Part shown: positions 3,089 through 13,691 of the stretch, piece after piece
Layout: each line of letters begins with the position of its first letter
Position numbering within the stretch: the stretch's first letter is position 1
Assembly (NCBI RefSeq): GCF_037902255.1
Contig: NZ_CP147990.1
Coordinates: 2,280,001 to 2,312,000, forward strand
DNA: 32,000 nt
Direction: 5' to 3'
Source of the DNA: Candidatus Electrothrix sp. GW3-4
GTDB taxonomy: Bacteria; Desulfobacterota; Desulfobulbia; Desulfobulbales; Desulfobulbaceae
The notes under the pieces: generated by a model
What the model saw: the letters and a program-made list of their open reading frames with translations, nothing else
Databases searched by the model: none
What the model was told of the DNA's origin: nothing
Translations under genes and position numbers: made by a program

Positions 3089-3582
3089 ATGGAAGTTATT
3101 TATGTCAGAGCGGATCGCTGCCTGGGCTGCAAGACCTGTGAGGTTGAGTGCCGGGTTGCCCATGCCGATAATGAGGATAATGAGAAAACGCTGTTGGCCG
3201 CAATCAGGCAGGCGCGGCCTCCCAAAAGGAGGCTGTTCGTGGAACAGGGAGCAACCGGTAAGGTCCCGGTGATCTGTCGCCACTGCGAAGAGGCCCCTGT
3301 ATTGTTGACTGTATCAGCGGCAGCATCTACCGGGACGAACAGGGCTTTGTCCGGCGCAAAAAGGAACGCTGCATGGGTTGCTGGTCCTGTATCATGGCCT
3401 GTCCCTTTGGAGTGGTTGTCCGGGATGCAGAGGCCCATATCGCGGTGAAATGCGATCACTGTCCTGATCTGGAGACCCCGGCCTGTGTGGCGGGCTGCCC
3501 GACTAAGGCCCTGCTGCTGGTTGATGTAGACAGCCTGCCCCAGGAGCGCCGCAAAGAACTTCTGCTCACAAAAGAGGCCTGA
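3089..3582 (+). pseudogene. cooF: CooF-type 4Fe-4S ferredoxin, split by a 1-nt frameshift at the C4 run 3294-3297
   Basis: ATG 3089 follows AAGGAGG at 3078-3084. Cys motifs present: CLGCKTCEVEC, CRHCEEAP, CMGCWSCIMACP, CDHC...CVAGCP. After CRHCEEAP the sequence CIVDCISGSIYRDEQGFVRRKKERCMGCW is read only in the frame of ORF 3373..3582. Confidence 0.8.
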
Positions 3583-5092: not shown

Positions 5093-6547
5093 ATGTCCGG
5101 GCTGTGCTGGTACCGCTTTGATGAAAACTGCTGGCGGAAATGTGCCGCTGCGGAGTTTGAGGGTGCCCTGAACGCTCTGCTCTACCCGGCAACTGCCGGA
5201 CTCGGTTTCAGCAACAATTACCAAAACGGAATAAGCCAGCTCTTGCAGAAGAGCGGACGGAACCCGCTACCCGATCCCCTACCCGGCACCATCCCCTTTC
5301 AAAATGGTCTGCTGGATCAAAGATCAATGGAGTTGTCACCTGTGACCCCTGAAAATGCCCATACCTGGGTATTGCCTTATGAATACTCCCCTGATGCTGA
5401 TTGCCCAAACTTCCTTGCATGGCTTAAAACAGCTTTGGACGATGACCCGGAGTCTATCCGACTGATTCAGGCATGGTTCAACGCACTGCTGACTGGCCGC
5501 CCGGATTTACAGGTTTTCTTCCATCTCATCGGCCCGGCAGGCACAGGCAAAAGCACTCTGGGAAGGCTGGCTTTTCAATTGGTGGGCAATGAAAACACCA
5601 CCACAACCAGCCTGAAGGAACTGGAAACCAATAAATTTGAAACCGCCAATATCCACGGCAAACGGTTAACCGCCATTGAAGAGGCGGACAAGTACGGCGG
5701 TTCGGTCAGCCAACTGAAGGCCATGACCGGACAAGACCCGCTACGGCTGGAGCGCAAGAACAAACAGCAGGAAGGTTCATTCATCTATGAGGGGCAAACC
5801 CTTATGATGAGCAATGAACGGCTTGTCAGCACGGATTATACAAGCGGCCTTGAGCGCAGAAGAATAACCCTTGAATTCTACAGAAGGATAACAAAGGAAA
5901 AGCGGGCCGCATGGGACAAACGCGGCGGTGAGCGGGCGATTCTGTACAAGGAGGCACCGGGTATCATCAATTGGGCCTTGCGGCTTCCCCGTGAAGAGGT
6001 CACGGATATTTTCAGGTCTATGCCGGAACGGGTACGCCGGGCCAATCTGGACGCGGCCATGTTCAACAATCCTCTCTTTGCCTGGATGGCGGAAAACCTC
6101 CTGCCTGATTCTGATTCGTCGGTGCAGATAGGCGTAAAAAAGGAACATCGGGAAGATGGAGCTGTTTCTTATGAGCACTCCGATGACCGGCTGTATCCTA
6201 ATTATCTGATCTGGTGCAAAGAAAACGGCAGGGAAAGCGTTTCAAACCAGCGTTTCAGCGCATCAGTGACAGATGCAGCACAGACGCAGGGGGCGCACGT
6301 ATACAAGAAAAAGGTGAGCGACGGCATGAAAATGTTCGGACTGCGGATTCGCCGGGAGGGGGAAAGCTCATGGCTTGAAGAACTTAAAGGCGGAGAGATG
6401 CAGGATGAAATGCAGACCGGAATGAAGGATAACTATCTGGAAGTGCAGGAGATGCAGGAGATGCAGGGCTTTTCATCAACTTCCTCTCATGAAAGAGGGT
6501 ATATACCCTCTGACTCTCCGGCTGAACAGGTTGAGGTGGAGTTTTGA
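5093..6547 (+). CDS. P4-family primase C-terminal / D5-like NTPase (primase-helicase) protein, probably 5'-truncated
   Basis: 484-aa ORF. It has a D5_N-like region (LPYEYSPDADCPNFLAWLKTALDDDPESIRLIQAWFNALLTG), Walker A (GPAGTGKST) and a Walker B-like site (RLTAIEEADKY). The frame is open only from 5072, at the repeat boundary 5079/5080. Confidence 0.7.
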   Translation: MSGLCWYRFDENCWRKCAAAEFEGALNALLYPATAGLGFSNNYQNGISQLLQKSGRNPLPDPLPGTIPFQNGLLDQRSMELSPVTPENAHTWVLPYEYSPDADCPNFLAWLKTALDDDPESIRLIQAWFNALLTGRPDLQVFFHLIGPAGTGKSTLGRLAFQLVGNENTTTTSLKELETNKFETANIHGKRLTAIEEADKYGGSVSQLKAMTGQDPLRLERKNKQQEGSFIYEGQTLMMSNERLVSTDYTSGLERRRITLEFYRRITKEKRAAWDKRGGERAILYKEAPGIINWALRLPREEVTDIFRSMPERVRRANLDAAMFNNPLFAWMAENLLPDSDSSVQIGVKKEHREDGAVSYEHSDDRLYPNYLIWCKENGRESVSNQRFSASVTDAAQTQGAHVYKKKVSDGMKMFGLRIRREGESSWLEELKGGEMQDEMQTGMKDNYLEVQEMQEMQGFSSTSSHERGYIPSDSPAEQVEVEF

Positions 6548-6954
6548 AACCGGCAGCTTTTCTTGAACTTGCCGAACAGGCAGGGGTAATCCTCTCTATC
6601 GGTTCGGTAGGGAAGATCAAGGCAAAGGGCGGGGCGGAGCAGGTAGACCGCTTCGCCCCGCTTATCCGGGAGCATAAAGCGGAGCTGCTGGCGTTCCTTC
6701 AGAGCGGATCAGCGCGGCGGCATGAATCGCCGTTGCCGTTTCTGGATGATCAGGGCAGGCTACGAATTCCCCTTGATGCTGATGATAAATACCGGTATTG
6801 GCAGGGCGGGCAATCGGTCTTTGCTACCCTGCTGGAGCTGGGAGCGTCGGACAAAGAGATTGAGGCGCATATAGGGCCGATCAGCACCTCGGAGAGCTGG
6901 CGGCAATGGCAGAAGAAACCCGCATCATTTGCGCGGCTTGATTTTGTTCTGTGA
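6544..6954 (+). CDS. Hypothetical protein of 136 aa. The N-terminus resembles a TubC_N-like docking motif often seen next to mobile-element primases.
   Basis: The TTG start overlaps the primase stop (TTGA). The motif is FLELAEQAGVILSIGSVGKIKAKGGAEQVDRFAPLIREHKAELLAFL. No firm family assignment. Confidence 0.45.
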   Translation: MKPAAFLELAEQAGVILSIGSVGKIKAKGGAEQVDRFAPLIREHKAELLAFLQSGSARRHESPLPFLDDQGRLRIPLDADDKYRYWQGGQSVFATLLELGASDKEIEAHIGPISTSESWRQWQKKPASFARLDFVL

Positions 6955-7082
6955 TACCTATGCGGGTACCTTTCTGTATAAAATTCCAGATTCCAGTTTA
7001 CTTTTTTAATTCAGCATGGTTTAAGTTTTGTTTGGGCATCACTATGATTATATTTGCTTTTTATCACTATCAGGGGGTTGGA

Positions 7083-7967
7083 ATGGTATTGTACGAAGAT
7101 TTTGATTTTGATGTATTAAATGATCCTGAATTTAAGGAGGATTCTGTACGAGAAGAGCTTGTGCAACCTCTAGTGAAGTTTCTTGGATATAAAGTTTCTG
7201 GAAATATACGAGTTATAAGAAGTCGATCATTAAAACATCCTTTCGTATCTATTGGTTCAACTAGAAATAAGATCTCGATAATTCCTGATTATGTATTTGA
7301 AGTAAATGGTAAAGTTCACTGGATATTGGATGCAAAATCCCCCTCTGAAAATATCTCAAAAACTAAGCATGTAGAACAGGCGTATAGCTATTCAATACAT
7401 CCTGAGATAAGGTCAAATCTTTACGCTCTGTGTAACGGAAGAGAATTTATTTTATATGATGTAAAAAAGAATGATCCTGTCTTGTTTTTCAAAATGACCG
7501 ATATTGATGAGTCCATCGAGAATCTTGTCAGAATTTTAGACCCTCGATTTATGGCTAATTCAGACGTTGTAGATTTTTATCCTGATTTGGGGCTGGCTTT
7601 AAGAAAGATAGGGAAAAGCCCAGGGTTTAGATTTATAGCTTTAAGTGTCCATGCGAATTTCATTTCTAAAGTTCAAGATGGTAAATATACAACGAGTACT
7701 TTGATACCTGATGACGGGAGAGGTCTGTTAGGAAGTTTTGACTTTGATGAAAATCTCTACAGAAAGTTGCTATCAATAGTTGATGAGGAGAAAGCAAGGT
7801 TAATAGAACAGTCACTATCTCAACAACCATATTCCTTGATGTTAGAAAATGAAGAATTCCTTTTCGGTTTAGTAGCGGATCTTCAGGGAGAGGTTGTAAA
7901 TAAACCAGAAGAGTCATTTGTCCCTTTTAAGGTTATTGATTTCATGCCATACAGTGAAGCACCTTAA
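7083..7967 (+). CDS. HsdR_N-like (type I restriction enzyme R N-terminal domain) PD-(D/E)xK nuclease-fold protein with a C-terminal half of unknown function
   Basis: ATG 7083 follows a GGGGG run and is preferred over the 6951 start of the track. The motif layout is EELVQPLVKFLGYK...IPDYVFEVNGKVHWILDAKSP...QAYSYS...LCNGREFILYD, matching the D...(D/E)xK...Q..Y...NG pattern of HSDR_N_2. The gene is visibly AT-rich. Confidence 0.6.
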   Translation: MVLYEDFDFDVLNDPEFKEDSVREELVQPLVKFLGYKVSGNIRVIRSRSLKHPFVSIGSTRNKISIIPDYVFEVNGKVHWILDAKSPSENISKTKHVEQAYSYSIHPEIRSNLYALCNGREFILYDVKKNDPVLFFKMTDIDESIENLVRILDPRFMANSDVVDFYPDLGLALRKIGKSPGFRFIALSVHANFISKVQDGKYTTSTLIPDDGRGLLGSFDFDENLYRKLLSIVDEEKARLIEQSLSQQPYSLMLENEEFLFGLVADLQGEVVNKPEESFVPFKVIDFMPYSEAP

Positions 7968-8406
7968 TAAAAAAAACTGAATGATAAGCATATGAGCTTA
8001 TTATAATATTAAAAAGTCGCATAATGTGTGATTATGTTAAATCCTGCTCCCTGCCGAGACGGATACCGGAACAACACTGCCGCCTTTACCCCCCTTGCGA
8101 TCACTATCAACGAAGGGCAATCAGTCCGCTCTGTTCAACCTCAATCAACACCGCAACAGTAAAGGAAGCACACCCGCACGGGAACAGGTGTTTCCTTTTG
8201 CCGACACAGCAAACTCGATACGCGGCCTGAAGAGCATTCGACCGCAGAGAAAATTTTATCCTGCCTTCCCCGAAAGCCCCGCCCGGTCAAAGCAAGCCCG
8301 CAATCGACACAGAGCACCCCGGAGAGCTGGCGGTGGTGGGTGGAGATTAAGGAGGGGCAGCAGGATTGAGTGTTCATTTTTAGTTTTTTTTGAGGTAAAA
8401 TAAAAG

Positions 8407-8435
8407 ATGATATATTATCATGCTGAACTATTCAG
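8407..8435 (+). promoter_or_regulatory. Two adjacent palindromes upstream of the Panacea/toxin operon, candidate operator sites
   Basis: ATGATA-tat-TATCAT at 8407-8421 and CTGAA-cta-TTCAG at 8423-8435, about 100 nt upstream of ATG 8531 in an AT-rich spacer. Confidence 0.3.
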
Positions 8436-8530
8436 TTCAGATGGCAGGAAGCGGGAACCCTGTTTATATCCTTAAATATCGTTATATTACATGTCGTAAC
8501 GGTTGATAGAACTCTATAGCGCAAGAATAA

Positions 8531-9316
8531 ATGAATACGTTGCGAATACAAAATTTAGTTCAATATATTTTAACCGAGGCTGCTCAGGATGAAGATTGGA
8601 GAAATCGTGAGCTTGGCCCGATACATATAATTAAATATCTGTATCTTGCTGATATGTATTATGCAATGGAAAAAGAGGGCGAGACATACACAGGTATTGA
8701 CTGGCAATTTTATCATTTTGGCCCGTGGAATCTTGAGCTTTACAAAAATATACCTCAATCAATTGAGAATATTGGTGCATACACAAGAAACTTTGAAAGC
8801 CAATATAATCAGGACGGAGTACGTTGGTCGTTAAAAAACGCTCAATATGATGAAGTAGTAAAACGTGTACCTTCTCAAATTTTATTCCGTTTAAAAAAGG
8901 ATATACGAGATTATGGTGCTGCTACTTTTGATCTGCTGCATTATGTATATGCCACGGAACCGATGCGTTCGACTGCACCAAACGAGTCTATTAATTTTGG
9001 TCTATTCTTAAACAGAGAAAAACAAATCCAATCAACAGAAATTGACAGCATCTCGTTGAGCAAGAAAAAACAAAAAAAACTCAAAGAAAAGATGCGGAAT
9101 CTAAAAGAACTGAATAAAGCGAAACTCGCTGAAAAGAAGAGGAATGCTTTGGTTAAACCACCGATCACCCCACGCTACGACGATGTATATACAGAGGGGG
9201 TAGAGTGGCTTGAATCATTGGCCGGGCCGGAGATTATACAAGGAAAACAAGAAGTTGTTTTTTCGAACTCTATCTGGAAATCTCCGGCGCGAAAGAGAGA
9301 TCATGTTTCCAACTGA
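8531..9316 (+). CDS. Panacea-domain (DUF4065, SocA/PanA-like) protein with a lysine-rich C-terminal extension; putative antitoxin
   Basis: 261 aa. IHIIKYLYLADMYYAMEKEGETYTGIDWQFYHFGPWNLELY fits the remembered Panacea core (KLLY.AD...G..iTG..y....GP....Y). A stop lies immediately upstream of ATG 8531. Confidence 0.6.
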   Translation: MNTLRIQNLVQYILTEAAQDEDWRNRELGPIHIIKYLYLADMYYAMEKEGETYTGIDWQFYHFGPWNLELYKNIPQSIENIGAYTRNFESQYNQDGVRWSLKNAQYDEVVKRVPSQILFRLKKDIRDYGAATFDLLHYVYATEPMRSTAPNESINFGLFLNREKQIQSTEIDSISLSKKKQKKLKEKMRNLKELNKAKLAEKKRNALVKPPITPRYDDVYTEGVEWLESLAGPEIIQGKQEVVFSNSIWKSPARKRDHVSN

Positions 9317-10010
9317 TGCTGTGCAAAATATTTGCGACTCTTGGTGGGTAGAAAACAACAACGAACTGAAAAGAGGTGCGTTGCTCTATGCTTTTCTTCC
9401 TCATGTCGATCAGATACCTGTTACTTTAAGAGAAGAGGGGAGGAATGATCCTACAAGTCATGATAGAGCCATACTTAATGTAACTCCTCTACGAATTCAA
9501 GACCACAGGCCCAAGAAAACATTACCTGTAGCTGCACTATCTTTAGATGAGGGAGAATTATGGACTGCATACAGGGCAAAAAAACGACCGTGTTTAGTGA
9601 TAGGTGAAGAGCCGCCTTCTGTGGATAATGTCCTTAGACGTGATATGCCAAAAAAATTGACCTCTCCAACCGTTCTTGTGGCTCCATATTACGGGGCGGA
9701 TAAAGACGGAAGGCGTGCCGGTTATAATGCTGCATTAGTAGAACGAATCAGGCATGCTGAATATCCGCAATTTTTAGTGGATCAGCTTCCTATAGGCGGC
9801 CCGAAAGAATCAATACTGAGATTTGATCATATTCAACCGATAGGCTTAAATGACTACGCCTATGAACATACAGGGTATTGTTTAAGCGATGAAGCCGTGG
9901 AGTCCATTTTGAATGATTGGCTTATCTGGGTCTTTTACGGCGGACTTCCGCCAGAAAGCATGCTCATTCTTTTTCAAGAAGAGATACTATCTATCTACGG
10001 AAATAATTGA
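9303..10010 (+). CDS. Putative toxin: an extended PemK/MazF-like protein with large insertions
   Basis: ATG 9303 overlaps the upstream gene by 14 nt. Motifs occur in MazF order: LKRGALLYAFLP; KKRPCLVIGEEP; PTVLVAPYYG; ESILRFDHIQPIGLNDYAYEHTGYCLSDEAVESILNDWL. At 235 aa it is about twice the canonical MazF size. Confidence 0.45.
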   Translation: MFPTDAVQNICDSWWVENNNELKRGALLYAFLPHVDQIPVTLREEGRNDPTSHDRAILNVTPLRIQDHRPKKTLPVAALSLDEGELWTAYRAKKRPCLVIGEEPPSVDNVLRRDMPKKLTSPTVLVAPYYGADKDGRRAGYNAALVERIRHAEYPQFLVDQLPIGGPKESILRFDHIQPIGLNDYAYEHTGYCLSDEAVESILNDWLIWVFYGGLPPESMLILFQEEILSIYGNN

Positions 10011-10112
10011 CAATATAAGAGCACCTAGAGCACCGCCAGCAACACACACCACGGGAACAGCCAGCAATGATGCAGGAAGTTCCGAGAATACCTCGTTATG
10101 AGGGGTTAATTC

Positions 10113-10652
10113 CTACTCCCTGAAAGTCAGAAGGTCAAAAAACATTAACCGGGTTCTGTCCTCAGCGACTTCGGGCCGAATGTCAAGAAACTGAAAGCCG
10201 TTCCGCTTGTAAAACTCCAGCGTCCTTTCATTATTTGCCGCATCCACGATAATGAAACGGCAGCCTGTTTTATTGCCTTCCGTAAACCACACCTTGATAA
10301 GATCAAGAATACGGGTTCCTATTCCCTGACTCTGAAAGTCGGAATTCGTCGCAAGCCGTCCGATTTTCACCGCTGGCATATTTGCATATCTTTTGGCTGC
10401 CGGAATGCTGGAACGTATCTTTTTGAATCTTGAGCGTGTGGTATCTTCCGCCCGTATGGAGTCATTGGAGACACAGAAAAAGGCGACTGTTGAGCCATCC
10501 ATTTCCACAGCATAGGTTACGGCCACAAGCTCCCTGTCCGCCTCCCTTGAATCTTCATGGAAGAATTCATTCAGGTCTTGACTGCCGCAATAAAAAAGGG
10601 GCCGATCTTCATCGGCCCCCATTCGTCTAAATATAATTTCTGAACTATCCAC
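10113..10652 (-). CDS. GNAT-family N-acetyltransferase of the TA-toxin type (TacT/AtaT/KacT-like)
   Basis: 179 aa. It has an N-terminal FYCGSQDLNEFFHEDS motif (the F.CG...L..FL hallmark of GNAT toxins), the acetyl-CoA motif QSQGIGTRIL, and ...EFYKRNGFQFL. GTG 10652 is the track start; ATG 10622 is an alternative. Confidence 0.7.
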   Translation of the reverse strand: MDSSEIIFRRMGADEDRPLFYCGSQDLNEFFHEDSREADRELVAVTYAVEMDGSTVAFFCVSNDSIRAEDTTRSRFKKIRSSIPAAKRYANMPAVKIGRLATNSDFQSQGIGTRILDLIKVWFTEGNKTGCRFIIVDAANNERTLEFYKRNGFQFLDIRPEVAEDRTRLMFFDLLTFRE

Positions 10653-10809
10653 AGGCGGAACAGACTACTTTGAAATTTTTGTATGCCTCTTTTGCCCGAT
10701 CATAATCGGCCTTGGGCACCTTTTTCTGTTCATTTGCCCTTATAGTCTTGAGAAAATGGCGGGCTGCCTCCCCTTTCAGAACAGGGGTTTCTTTGATTGC
10801 TGTTGCCAT
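10645..10809 (-). CDS. Small 54-aa protein, putative cognate antitoxin of the GNAT gene (below the ORF-track size cutoff)
   Basis: Hand translation gives MATAIKETPVLKGEAARHFLKTIRANEQKKVPKADYDRAKEAYKNFKVVCSACG*. GGAGG lies 7 nt upstream of ATG 10809. Its stop overlaps the GNAT GTG start by 8 nt (GTGGATAG). Confidence 0.6.
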   Translation of the reverse strand: MATAIKETPVLKGEAARHFLKTIRANEQKKVPKADYDRAKEAYKNFKVVCSACG

Positions 10810-11018
10810 GATGTTTCCTCCGTATACGTTCCTATTCCTTCCTGTACCTTCTTATACTTTAATTATATTGCCGGAAAAAATCAATGATTATCCGGTTTAC
10901 TGATAAGATGCCGCGTCCCCTGTTCTTGCCTGTGGGGGCAGTTTTTCACAAGCCACAGGTAAAGCCCCACCCCTGCAACCTCCCTGAGCAACCGGAAAGA
11001 CAGAAAAGAAATGCAGGT

Positions 11019-11150
11019 GGCGTGAAGACCTGCATGAAAGACAACCCCTTGAAAGTGTTTAAAATGAATACCGTGAACACCTTTGCATTAACTTCTATAG
11101 GGGAACGCGCTATATATCTGCCCGCCTTCAGCATTGAAACAAGGGTGAAA
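11019..11150 (+). repeat. Copy A of a diverged ~130-nt direct repeat; contains a possible small ORF from ATG 11034
   Basis: Colinear with 12416-12548. The shared core is cattaacttctataggggaacNcgctNtatat (11086-11117 vs 12483-12514). It is flanked by ggcgtgaaga...atgaa and ...ttcag..ttg.aa.aagggtgaaa. Confidence 0.75.
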
Positions 11151-12085: not shown

Positions 12086-12415
12086 GGTGGGGTCTCCTTA
12101 GTGAAAATGCTTCACCATCCTTCGCTTGCAAACGAAAAATGGCTGTTAAGCAGGTTGCAAGACCGCCACTAAGAACGGCAGACCCGGAGGTCTCCTGCTC
12201 AACAGCCAAAGAGAGTGCGCTGAAAATAGGACACAATACCGCCTGTGCATAATAAAAAAGCGGATGTCCTCTTAGTGGTCGGGCTTGCAATCCCGGCCCA
12301 CGGATTTTGCCGCAGGCAATGAACAAATTACAGGGGGAACGGGCTGTGGTCAACAAAAAATATGATATGTCTCTGTCCTCTGTTATCAAGAGCAGAGAAT
12401 GAAGGACTGAAGGAA

Positions 12416-12659: not shown

Positions 12660-12690
12660 GGGCAGCTTTCCAGGAGGCTGCCCATTTTTA
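12660..12690 (+). terminator. Rho-independent terminator; part of the right repeat copy
   Basis: Perfect 7-bp stem GGGCAGC (12660-12666) / GCTGCCC (12677-12683) with a 10-nt loop, then ATTTTTA. Confidence 0.55.
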
Positions 12691-13332
12691 TATCTCCAGT
12701 TCGCTCTTTATCCCTTCCCGCAACGCATCATAGAAAACACAGTCCCCTGATTCCCATTTTCTGAATATTGCCCAGTTGCAATAATCCGCAAGCTGTAGCC
12801 CCATATTTGACATTGAGGCATGATGCAGCACCCGGAACCGACAACCTGAAGGCAGCATTCTTTTCAGCACCGTCTTGACCGCCTTTTCTACAGCAGCCCG
12901 TTTCTTTTTTATCGGTATACTGTCAGTAATCACGATCAGCTCTTTCATGCTGTCCAGCTCTTCCCGCTCTTGTTCAGCAACGTGCCGGATCAGGTGCCCC
13001 AACATTCGAGGATAGAATTCTTCAGAAGCCTGCAAGGCCGGAACGATTTTGCTTTTCTCTACTATCAGCGAATCCACCCGCAAATCTGCAATATTCTCCT
13101 TGATGATCCCAAACACCCGCTGCCGAACATGGCGGTTGTCTTTGGTGCAGTGGAAATACGAAAAATCAAACCCGTATTCGATCAGGTCAAACTTGTATTT
13201 TCCCAATTCATGGCAGGCGGTAAAGGGGCGTTTGGTACAAACACTTGTCAGGGTGAAATACTTTGTCCCGGATGCCGCAAAATCCAGATTCCCCCCTTCA
13301 TCAAGAAAGATGTATAAACAGCCGTTGCTCAT
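12688..13332 (-). CDS. DUF3800-family protein, intact
   Basis: 214 aa. The N-terminal LYIFLDEGGNLDF and C-terminal GLQLADYCNWAIF match the remembered DUF3800 signature (y.D.SG ... lQ.AD). Its last ~53 codons plus the downstream terminator (12659-12849) form the right copy of the 190-bp repeat. Confidence 0.65.
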   Translation of the reverse strand: MSNGCLYIFLDEGGNLDFAASGTKYFTLTSVCTKRPFTACHELGKYKFDLIEYGFDFSYFHCTKDNRHVRQRVFGIIKENIADLRVDSLIVEKSKIVPALQASEEFYPRMLGHLIRHVAEQEREELDSMKELIVITDSIPIKKKRAAVEKAVKTVLKRMLPSGCRFRVLHHASMSNMGLQLADYCNWAIFRKWESGDCVFYDALREGIKSELEI

Positions 13333-13615: not shown

Positions 13616-13691
13616 TGGTGGGCCGTGAAGGATTCGAACCTTCGACCAATTGATTAAGAGTCAACTGCTCTGCCAGCTGAGCTAACGGCCC
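13616..13691 (-). tRNA. tRNA-Lys, anticodon CTT, with encoded CCA
   Basis: The reverse complement folds by hand as GGGCCGT TA GCTC AGCTGGCA GAGC A GTTGA CTCTTAA TCAAT TGGTC GAAGG TTCGAAT CCTTC ACGGCCC A CCA. That gives a 7-bp acceptor stem, D, anticodon and T arms, and a TTCGAAT T-loop, 76 nt in total. Confidence 0.92.

Follow-up and report, generated by a model that had tools for sequence, protein, structure and literature searches.

Overlapping genes for a divergent Panacea protein and an enlarged MazF-like partner in Candidatus Electrothrix: a candidate PanAT toxin–antitoxin module

A pair of overlapping genes in Candidatus Electrothrix sp. GW3-4 raises the question of whether it encodes a toxin–antitoxin (TA) module of the PanAT class and, if so, what kind of toxin it carries. 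The pair lies within a stretch of 32,000 nucleotides (nt) (NZ_CP147990.1, positions 2,280,001-2,312,000), hereafter denoted the window, in which the GC content at the pair is 0.42 as against 0.53-0.60 at 1-7 kb. Gene 1 encodes a protein of 261 residues and gene 2, which follows on the same strand, one of 235 residues. An original prediction for this locus had taken gene 1 for a Panacea-type antitoxin and gene 2 for a divergent toxin of the MazF fold, in a combination that was held not to be a described architecture. On balance, we favour reading the locus as a PanAT module of type II whose toxin is a ribonuclease (RNase) derived from MazF; what is new here is, judging from the sequence comparisons, most likely an enlarged toxin family within the described PanA class, together with a PanA bearing a conserved C-terminal extension.

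Linkage of the two genes

The 14-nt overlap described in the original prediction (stop 9316, ATG 9303) is confirmed in both the sequence and the list of open reading frames (ORFs). Asp5 of gene 2, encoded within the overlap codons ACT GAT, is invariant in the family alignment, and the purine-rich Shine-Dalgarno-like element within the 3′-terminal part of gene 1 has an equivalent, GGAAAGG or GGAGGGG, ahead of gene 2 in most loci. A TTG at 9210 was considered as an alternative start for gene 2 and dismissed because the family alignment begins at the equivalent of ATG 9303, with more than 300 gene 2 homologues opening M-(Y/F)-P-x-D at the matching position.

One genome per species was scanned (102 relatives, 80 loci kept), and linkage was assessed by searching the six-frame ORFs of every locus with both family profiles (hmmsearch). 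Wherever upstream sequence is available, in ~76 distinct loci, gene 2 is directly preceded by a same-strand homologue of gene 1; each of the five loci lacking gene 1 has less than ~120 nt of upstream sequence. A reverse start from three gene 1 homologues gave identical pairing. Of 67 loci, 60 have an overlap of between 11 and 20 nt (11 nt in 34, 14 nt in 13, 20 nt in 11 and 17 nt in 2); the gene 1 stop, a TGA in 61 of the 67, falls inside the P-(D/E)-D codons that gene 2 conserves. Each flanking protein family is confined to four loci or fewer, and a conserved third gene is absent. The gene pair is more than a chance arrangement, because hundreds of full-length homologues of both proteins exist and the pair and its overlap recur in every locus that could be checked. 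Judged from the compared loci, gene 1 and gene 2 are an obligate pair, translationally coupled and horizontally mobile; the coupling had been anticipated.

Hosts of the pair are found in the Desulfobacterota, Gammaproteobacteria, Binatia, Acidobacteriota, Nitrospirota, Thermodesulfovibrionia, Myxococcota, Zetaproteobacteria and others. Its surroundings vary. In Desulfurivibrio alkaliphilus (CP001940.1; locus L085) the homologous pair adjoins a transposase and the bacteriophage exclusion (BREX) genes BrxB and BrxC, at a second locus (L004) it stands beside type I restriction-modification genes and a resolvase, and at a third (L087) it sits between an integrase and a resolvase; in other loci it is found among housekeeping genes. 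Predicted viral or prophage contigs account for six copies, and no gene 2 copies were found in deposited phage or plasmid collections. At one Acidobacteriota locus (L076, 3234-3722) the PanA-like ORF is truncated and ends ~270 nt before the gene 2 homologue, for which a frameshift, decay to a pseudogene or faulty assembly may account.

Fold and family of the two proteins

The gene 2 family is large. It comprises 316 close homologues, and exhaustive scanning with HMMER found no fewer than 566 clusters at 50% identity; among the 150 matches listed, full-length homologues span ~225-260 residues, and the family is labelled 'hypothetical' wherever a source names it. The window protein has no match in Pfam, NCBIfam, PHROGs or PADLOC. 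One of 35 family members matches PemK (E 0.25), with no other Pfam match, and searches of PDB sequences with a HMMER profile of the family returned noise only. The alignment reveals invariant residues throughout the protein, D5, Q8, W14, W15, H34, D36, Q37, R47 and H53 in residues 1-83 and E85, K93, R95, R138, Y154, Q156, S170, R173, D175, H176 and Q178 beyond them.

The MazF-like core ascribed to gene 2 in the original prediction is supported by structure and profile comparison. For the AlphaFold model of gene 2 (predicted local distance difference test, pLDDT, 87.9; predicted template modelling score 0.83), a Foldseek search of 350,542 PDB chains placed MazF from E. coli and M. tuberculosis at ranks 1-8 and 10-12, and nothing but MazF toxins is found among its 11 best informative matches in the PDB. 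The best match has an E value of 0.014 and a probability of 0.98, with template modelling (TM) scores, normalised to MazF, of 0.38-0.55. A fold search of BFVD gave nothing useful. Alignment of the gene 2 family by hhalign with MazF/Kid/EndoA/ChpBK gave 11% with 35 sequences and 70% with 91 more diverse ones, rising to 82% for residues 84-235. The real score of 36.0 compares with 12.8±2.8 for column shuffles, 15.7±3.2 for block shuffles and 23.9 for the reversed profile, and thus lies 6-8 standard deviations over the shuffled controls. A homologue search seeded with the MazF alignment recovered only near-identical Bacillus NdoA proteins, so that the MazF profile was not enriched, and no PemK genes are present in the fetched loci.

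The hhalign register is stable across runs. It places K94-R95-P96 of gene 2 on H28-R29-P30 of MazF, A127-P128-Y129-Y130 on V49-P50-C51-T52 of MazF, and S170-I-L-R173-F-D175-H176 on G70-V-V-R73-C-D75-Q76 of Kid. R95, at the R29 position of MazF (the 'RP' of strand 2), is invariant across the 35-sequence alignment and conserved to at least 90% across the 91; R173 and D175, at the positions of Kid R73 and D75, are both at least 90% conserved. R25/R29 and T48/T52 are essential in MazF (PMC10893535), R73 and D75 form the catalytic pair of Kid, and catalytic residues are described as 'roaming' within the MazF family (PMC3879964). Given this register and these published roles, gene 2 keeps the Arg and the Arg/Asp catalytic positions, with the Thr replaced by Tyr. 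A greedier alignment sets MazF strand 1 (GDLIWV) on G84-ELWTAY of gene 2, which in the model forms a tight hairpin with strand 92-101. All peptide blocks quoted in the original prediction are present in the translations, and of the four assigned there to MazF, KKRPCLVIG, TVLVAPYYG and the block starting ESILRFDHIQPIG align in the proposed register; RGALLYAFLP is not supported as strand 1, since hhalign puts G84-ELWTAY there.

Gene 2 is indeed enlarged, and its extra length is better described as an N-terminal extension, small insertions and a C-terminal helix; the two long insertions that had been suggested are only partly right. The extension comprises ~83 residues, the insertions 12, 5 and 16 residues, and the helix residues 220-232. 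Approximately half of the invariant residues lie within residues 1-83, outside the MazF-like core; hhalign detects no significant similarity of this region to MazF or to residues 84-235. At 90-142 columns, most of the Foldseek alignments would be too short to take in the modelled strand 26-33. An internal duplication, that is, a fused pseudo-dimer of two MazF halves, was rejected, residues 1-83 being unlike both residues 84-235 and MazF. A CcdB-like reading was rejected at the profile level (hhalign against F-plasmid CcdB, 0.2%, score 11.4), and no CcdB chain is among the top 50 Foldseek matches of gene 2.

Gene 1 belongs to a family of 175 homologues of ~260 residues. The only Pfam match of the window protein is SocA_Panacea (PF13274; E 8e-4), and the Panacea call leans on the family because this match, at 20.7 bits, falls below the cut-off of 25.7. 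PF13274 is matched at E<0.01 by 25 of 32 sampled family members (best 9e-7), in which no other Pfam family was found; the family consensus scores 23 bits, and a precomputed PF13274 match is attached to 6 of 120 homologues. Some members are labelled Panacea or SocA by NCBI or UniRef. NCBIfam and PADLOC gave nothing for gene 1 and PHROGs only weak matches to families of unknown function. By profile, gene 1 is treated as a divergent Panacea protein at the family level, an assignment that is not certain for the window protein taken alone; the Panacea/DUF4065-like core that had been proposed holds in the former sense and falls short of the cut-off in the latter.

The AlphaFold model of gene 1 has a pLDDT of 83.9. 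Its best PDB match is 7yk3_B, chain B of an M. tuberculosis DarTG complex (E 0.1, probability 0.93), followed by winged-helix DNA-binding proteins; these matches raise the possibility of a kinship of the Panacea fold with winged-helix domains, with the part of DarG that binds DarT, or with both. A HMMER profile search of the gene 1 family against PDB sequences gave noise only. Beyond the Panacea domain, the lysine-rich segment is modelled as helices 158-171 and 178-205, with a low-confidence stretch at ~161-180, and carries a net charge of +10 in the window protein (family mean +7.6). In the C-terminal extension D217, W249 and R254 are invariant and P214, R215 and G223 near-invariant; its pLDDT of 63-79, below 50 for residues 258-261, would fit folding on binding. 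By analogy with Phd-C of PanA (PMC10440598) and the MazE C-terminus (PMC3879964), we propose that this extension is a putative toxin-binding or neutralising element. An acidic MazE-like tail was also considered; with a C-terminal charge averaging -3 (-1 in the window) it is weakly supported and was not relied on.

Two further members or possible members of the gene 1 family may be recorded. A 598-residue 'RhuM family protein' of Methylomonas sp. CM2 (P0241) falls in the same 90%-identity cluster as a 264-residue PanA-like protein (P0204) and could represent a fusion of RhuM with PanA or an error in gene calling. In the portion consulted of the published supplementary tables (Kurata 2022, Ernits 2023), no member of the gene 1/gene 2 family is identified by accession or genus; a Sulfuricaulis limicola PanA tabled there as 'no_PanT' is a possible member of the gene 1 family.

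Upstream region and genomic surroundings

The two palindromes reported upstream of gene 1 are present in the sequence (Table 1), together with a sigma-70-like promoter candidate whose -10 hexamer falls within palindrome 1. The consensus scan of the region returned 7 sites with 5.0 expected, so that each is weak taken singly; the candidate region is conserved in Ca. Electrothrix YB6. Palindrome 1 is expected 0.05 times per window, allowing up to 1 mismatch. The best palindrome, palindrome 2 in the form with 7-bp arms, has p = 0.08 against composition-matched shuffles of the 160-nt upstream region, and no conservation of it was seen outside the near-identical YB6 locus. A general operator palindrome upstream of the gene 1 family was rejected, there being no enrichment (1 of 73 loci at p<=0.05). 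Exact ATGATA-N3-TATCAT occurs in only 3 copies in ~730 kb (the window and 84 loci), all upstream of gene 1 and all in cable-bacteria genomes, three in number. The proteins of one of these, Ca. Electronema aureum (L083), are only ~41-46% identical to those of the window, yet the palindrome 1 arms are shared. This pattern suggests a candidate clade-specific operator overlapping the -10-like TATCAT.

Table 1. Features of the gene pair and its surroundings (window coordinates unless a locus is named)
Feature	Coordinates	Strand	Basis or remarks
D5_N/DUF5906 primase-like gene	5093-6547	+	
Imperfect direct repeat, 34 nt	6883-6916 and 8313-8346		Flanks cassette
Cassette, 1.4 kb, 34% GC	6917-8312		Absent from YB6 locus
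ORF, HSDR_N-type nuclease-like	6951-7967		Within cassette
Sigma-70-like promoter candidate, TTGAGG-17 nt-TATTAT	8390-8418	+	Consensus scan, 9/12 matches
Palindrome 1, ATGATAtatTATCAT (ATGATA-tat-TATCAT), candidate operator	8407-8421	unstranded	ATGATA-N3-TATCAT site
ATGATA-N3-TATCAT site, L005 (Ca. Electrothrix YB6)	3101-3115 of locus		
ATGATA-N3-TATCAT site, L083 (Ca. Electronema aureum)	3191-3205 of locus		
Palindrome 2, CTGAActaTTCAG (CTGAA-cta-TTCAG)	8423-8435		
Palindrome 2, form with 7-bp arms, CTGAACT-attc-AGTTCAG	8423-8440		
Gene 1 (261 residues)	8531-9316	+	ATG 8531, TGA ending 9316; sequence and ORF list
Gene 1 residues 1-160, divergent Panacea (SocA-like) domain	8531-9010	+	PF13274; AlphaFold2 (AF2) pLDDT mostly 83-97
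Gene 1 residues 161-205, lysine-rich segment, partly modelled helix	9011-9145	+	Charge, AF2 model
Gene 1 residues 206-261 and stop, conserved C-terminal extension	9146-9316	+	Motif PRYDDVY..G.EWL..LAG...FS..IWKS.AR
Purine-rich Shine-Dalgarno-like GAAAGAGAGA for gene 2	9291-9300	+	Inside gene 1 3′ end
Gene 2 (235 residues)	9303-10010	+	ATG 9303 to stop 10010; sequence and ORF list
Gene 1/gene 2 overlap, 14 nt	9303-9316	+	Gene 1 TGA spans gene 2 codons 4-5 (ACT GAT)
Gene 2 residues 1-83, beta-rich N-terminal extension, invariant-rich	9303-9551	+	Alignment; modelled strands 15-17, 26-33, 40-44, 58-62
Gene 2 residues 84-212, MazF/PemK-like core	9552-9938	+	Foldseek, hhalign
Gene 2 residues 213-235 and stop, extra C-terminal helix	9939-10010	+	Model helix 220-232; beyond MazF alignment end
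GNAT acetyltransferase gene	10113-10652	-	Start overlapped by 54-residue ORF
ORF of 54 residues, no family match	10645-10809	-	Conserved, with GNAT gene, in YB6 locus
C4 antisense RNA (Rfam)	12135-12213	-	46.2 bits, cut-off 45
DUF3800 protein	12688-13332	-	Also PADLOC candidate defence model DUF3800_VII
tRNA-Lys	13616-13691	-	

The closest relative is Ca. Electrothrix sp. YB6 (90-93% protein identity), with which the window is collinear over 5594-6916 and 8313-11117. The cassette between these blocks, framed by the direct repeat, carries the ORF for a protein resembling a restriction-enzyme N-terminal (type IIG-like) nuclease; the arrangement suggests a hotspot immediately ahead of the PanA-like pair, at which the cassette was gained. 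On the other side, the GNAT gene and the 54-residue ORF look like a GNAT-toxin/small-antitoxin pair. From its gene content, the ~8.5-kb region around the pair looks like a mobile or defence island, and the bracket formed by the primase-like gene, the C4 RNA and tRNA-Lys is reminiscent of an integrative element or a phage satellite. Neither an integrase nor an att repeat of the tRNA-Lys end delimiting the island was found.

Proposed function and comparison with known systems

The observations set out above cover the gene structure, the signals of family membership, the fold similarity, the residue correspondence, and the strict linkage and mobility of the pair; toxicity and RNase activity of gene 2, the neutralising part of the PanA and the regulation of the pair are inferred. 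Gene 2 probably works like MazF/Kid: as the putative toxin, it would cleave cellular RNA as an endoribonuclease and so arrest translation, with the 83-residue N-terminal region probably reshaping substrate recognition or regulation. The putative antitoxin, gene 1, would bind and block the toxin through its C-terminal extension, as in multidomain PanAs and MazE, with the Panacea domain acting as a scaffold or sensor. Both genes would be co-transcribed from the promoter that overlaps the palindrome and their translation would be coupled, so that the antitoxin is proposed to be made together with the toxin.

Several points weigh against this scheme. Gene 2 reaches Foldseek E values of only 0.01-0.5 and TM-scores of 0.38-0.55 per MazF length; the MazF profile used for hhalign was built from five sequences; and neither the window protein nor the family consensus matches the PemK model of Pfam (PF02452). 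The position of MazF T52 (E. coli) or T48 (B. subtilis) is occupied in gene 2 by Y130, within the conserved motif APYYG, and the window protein, with an isoelectric point of 5.2, is acidic, which is unusual for an RNA-binding toxin. On the side of gene 1, the window protein is sub-threshold for PF13274, and Foldseek of its model against the PDB found no Panacea structure.

The alternatives concern role as much as chemistry. In one, which overlaps the favoured reading and differs from it in role and not in chemistry, the pair serves abortive-infection phage defence, with Panacea sensing a phage cue and freeing the MazF-like effector. The variable island in which the pair sits, with its D5_N/DUF5906 primase, restriction-type nuclease-like cassette, GNAT pair, DUF3800_VII protein and C4 RNA beside tRNA-Lys, is in keeping with such a role, as are the BREX and type I restriction-modification genes, integrases and resolvases that the pair adjoins elsewhere and the six copies on predicted viral or prophage contigs; Panacea as a sensor has itself been hypothesised (PMC10440598). 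Neither protein, however, matches PADLOC, deposited phage and plasmid collections hold no gene 2 copies, and many loci lie among housekeeping genes, so that we regard this role as a possible but tentative one. A different proposal accepts that gene 2 has the MazF/CcdB scaffold and denies that it keeps the chemistry: the protein would be a CcdB-like stoichiometric poison, or would have gained new catalysis from the invariant His, Asp, Gln and Arg residues of its N-terminal region. That about half of the invariant residues stand in residues 1-83, outside the core, that the Thr position of MazF is a Tyr, that the protein is acidic and that catalytic residues 'roam' in the MazF family (PMC3879964) are all in keeping with this. 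It is nonetheless unlikely in our estimation, as the profile similarity to CcdB is nil (hhalign 0.2%), the equivalents of MazF R29 and of Kid R73 and D75 are conserved, and those MazF-fold PanTs that have been tested inhibit translation (PMC8832971).

The pair might, finally, not be a TA system but a conserved module of two non-toxic proteins, such as an enzyme that processes nucleic acids and its regulatory partner, linked by complex formation only. The sub-threshold Panacea match of gene 1 would leave room for this, as would the finding of Kurata et al. that several of the putative PanTs they assayed were not toxic (PMC8832971). We consider it improbable, the patchy spread across phyla, the unrelated neighbours and the association with mobile elements being typical of selfish or defence modules and the antitoxin-first, overlapping gene order matching that of type II TA systems. 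A bolder version of the phage-defence and new-chemistry proposals combines them: gene 2 would be an unnamed branch of a toxin superfamily in which a MazF-derived core and an invariant-rich N-terminal module (PHxDQ, R47, H53, W14-W15) together give a composite active site, a new target specificity (e.g. structured tRNA/rRNA) or a non-RNase chemistry, the Panacea-linker-extension of gene 1 would be a phage-sensing switch, and the pair would be an abortive-infection system widespread in the Desulfobacterota, Gammaproteobacteria and Binatia. We hold this to be speculative and, as a whole, rather doubtful.

If the favoured reading, a PanAT module with a MazF-derived RNase, is true, a sizeable unannotated toxin family without a Pfam or NCBIfam model joins the PanAT network, and a MazF core is seen to be enlarged by an N-terminal module, with the catalytic Thr replaced and the Arg and Asp positions kept. 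The basic helix and C-terminal extension of gene 1 offer a test case for whether Panacea itself neutralises or senses while an appended element neutralises. With a Pfam or NCBIfam model for each of the two families, hundreds of pairs listed as 'hypothetical' in environmental genomes could be annotated.

Among known systems, MazEF/Kis-Kid (PemIK, PF02452) shares with the pair, as far as model and profile comparison indicate, a probable core fold with a C-terminal helix, and further the Arg of the strand 2 'RP', the Asp of a later strand with the Kid-type Arg, the (here putative) antitoxin gene in first place and translational coupling. In contrast to these systems, gene 2 has no PF02452 match, is at 235 residues twice the size of the single-domain toxins (~100-120 residues), carries a Tyr at the Thr52 equivalent and has the extra helix 220-232, which canonical MazF lacks; its partner is Panacea-like and not a MazE/PemI of the AbrB or ribbon-helix-helix type, and gene 1, unlike the antitoxins of these systems, is without a recognised DNA-binding domain. 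By profile, size or Thr position, gene 2 is not a Pfam PemK member. As in the multidomain PanAs, in which an appended Phd-C, PAD1 or ZBD can neutralise and Panacea is possibly a sensor (Ernits et al. 2023, PMC10440598), Panacea in gene 1 is joined linearly to a further conserved, putatively neutralising element; unlike theirs, the extension (PRYDDVY...WKS.AR) matches no named domain, and its role is assigned by analogy.

The closest parallel is found in the PanAT systems themselves, defined by Kurata et al. (2022, PNAS, PMC8832971), who list PemK among the PanT domains and recognised clusters T5 and T6, with the PanTs of Pseudomonas moraviensis and Bifidobacterium ruminantium, as EndoA/PemK/MazF by HHpred only; WP_083201923.1 and WP_116809181.1 are examples of T5/T6 PanT sequences. 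Two PanA:MazF-fold pairs were validated experimentally in that study as translation-inhibiting TA systems. Since pairs of PanA with MazF-fold toxins have thus been published and validated (PMC8832971), the architecture is not undescribed, and the original prediction was too strong on this point. The pair agrees with the PanAT class in gene order and with its definition in spacing (two same-strand genes separated by at most 100 nt), in conservation (two species or more) and in operon length (a conserved unit of up to three genes). Shared with T5/T6 are a putative antitoxin, here a divergent Panacea-like protein, that is encoded first and overlaps or abuts the toxin, the bicistronic and horizontally mobile arrangement, and a MazF/PemK kinship of the toxin that is visible by profile or structure methods only. 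What sets the pair apart from the descriptions of T5/T6 is, for gene 2, its length of 235 residues, its 83-residue N-terminal extension, its insertions and its extra C-terminal helix and, for gene 1, a basic helical linker followed by the conserved C-terminal extension.

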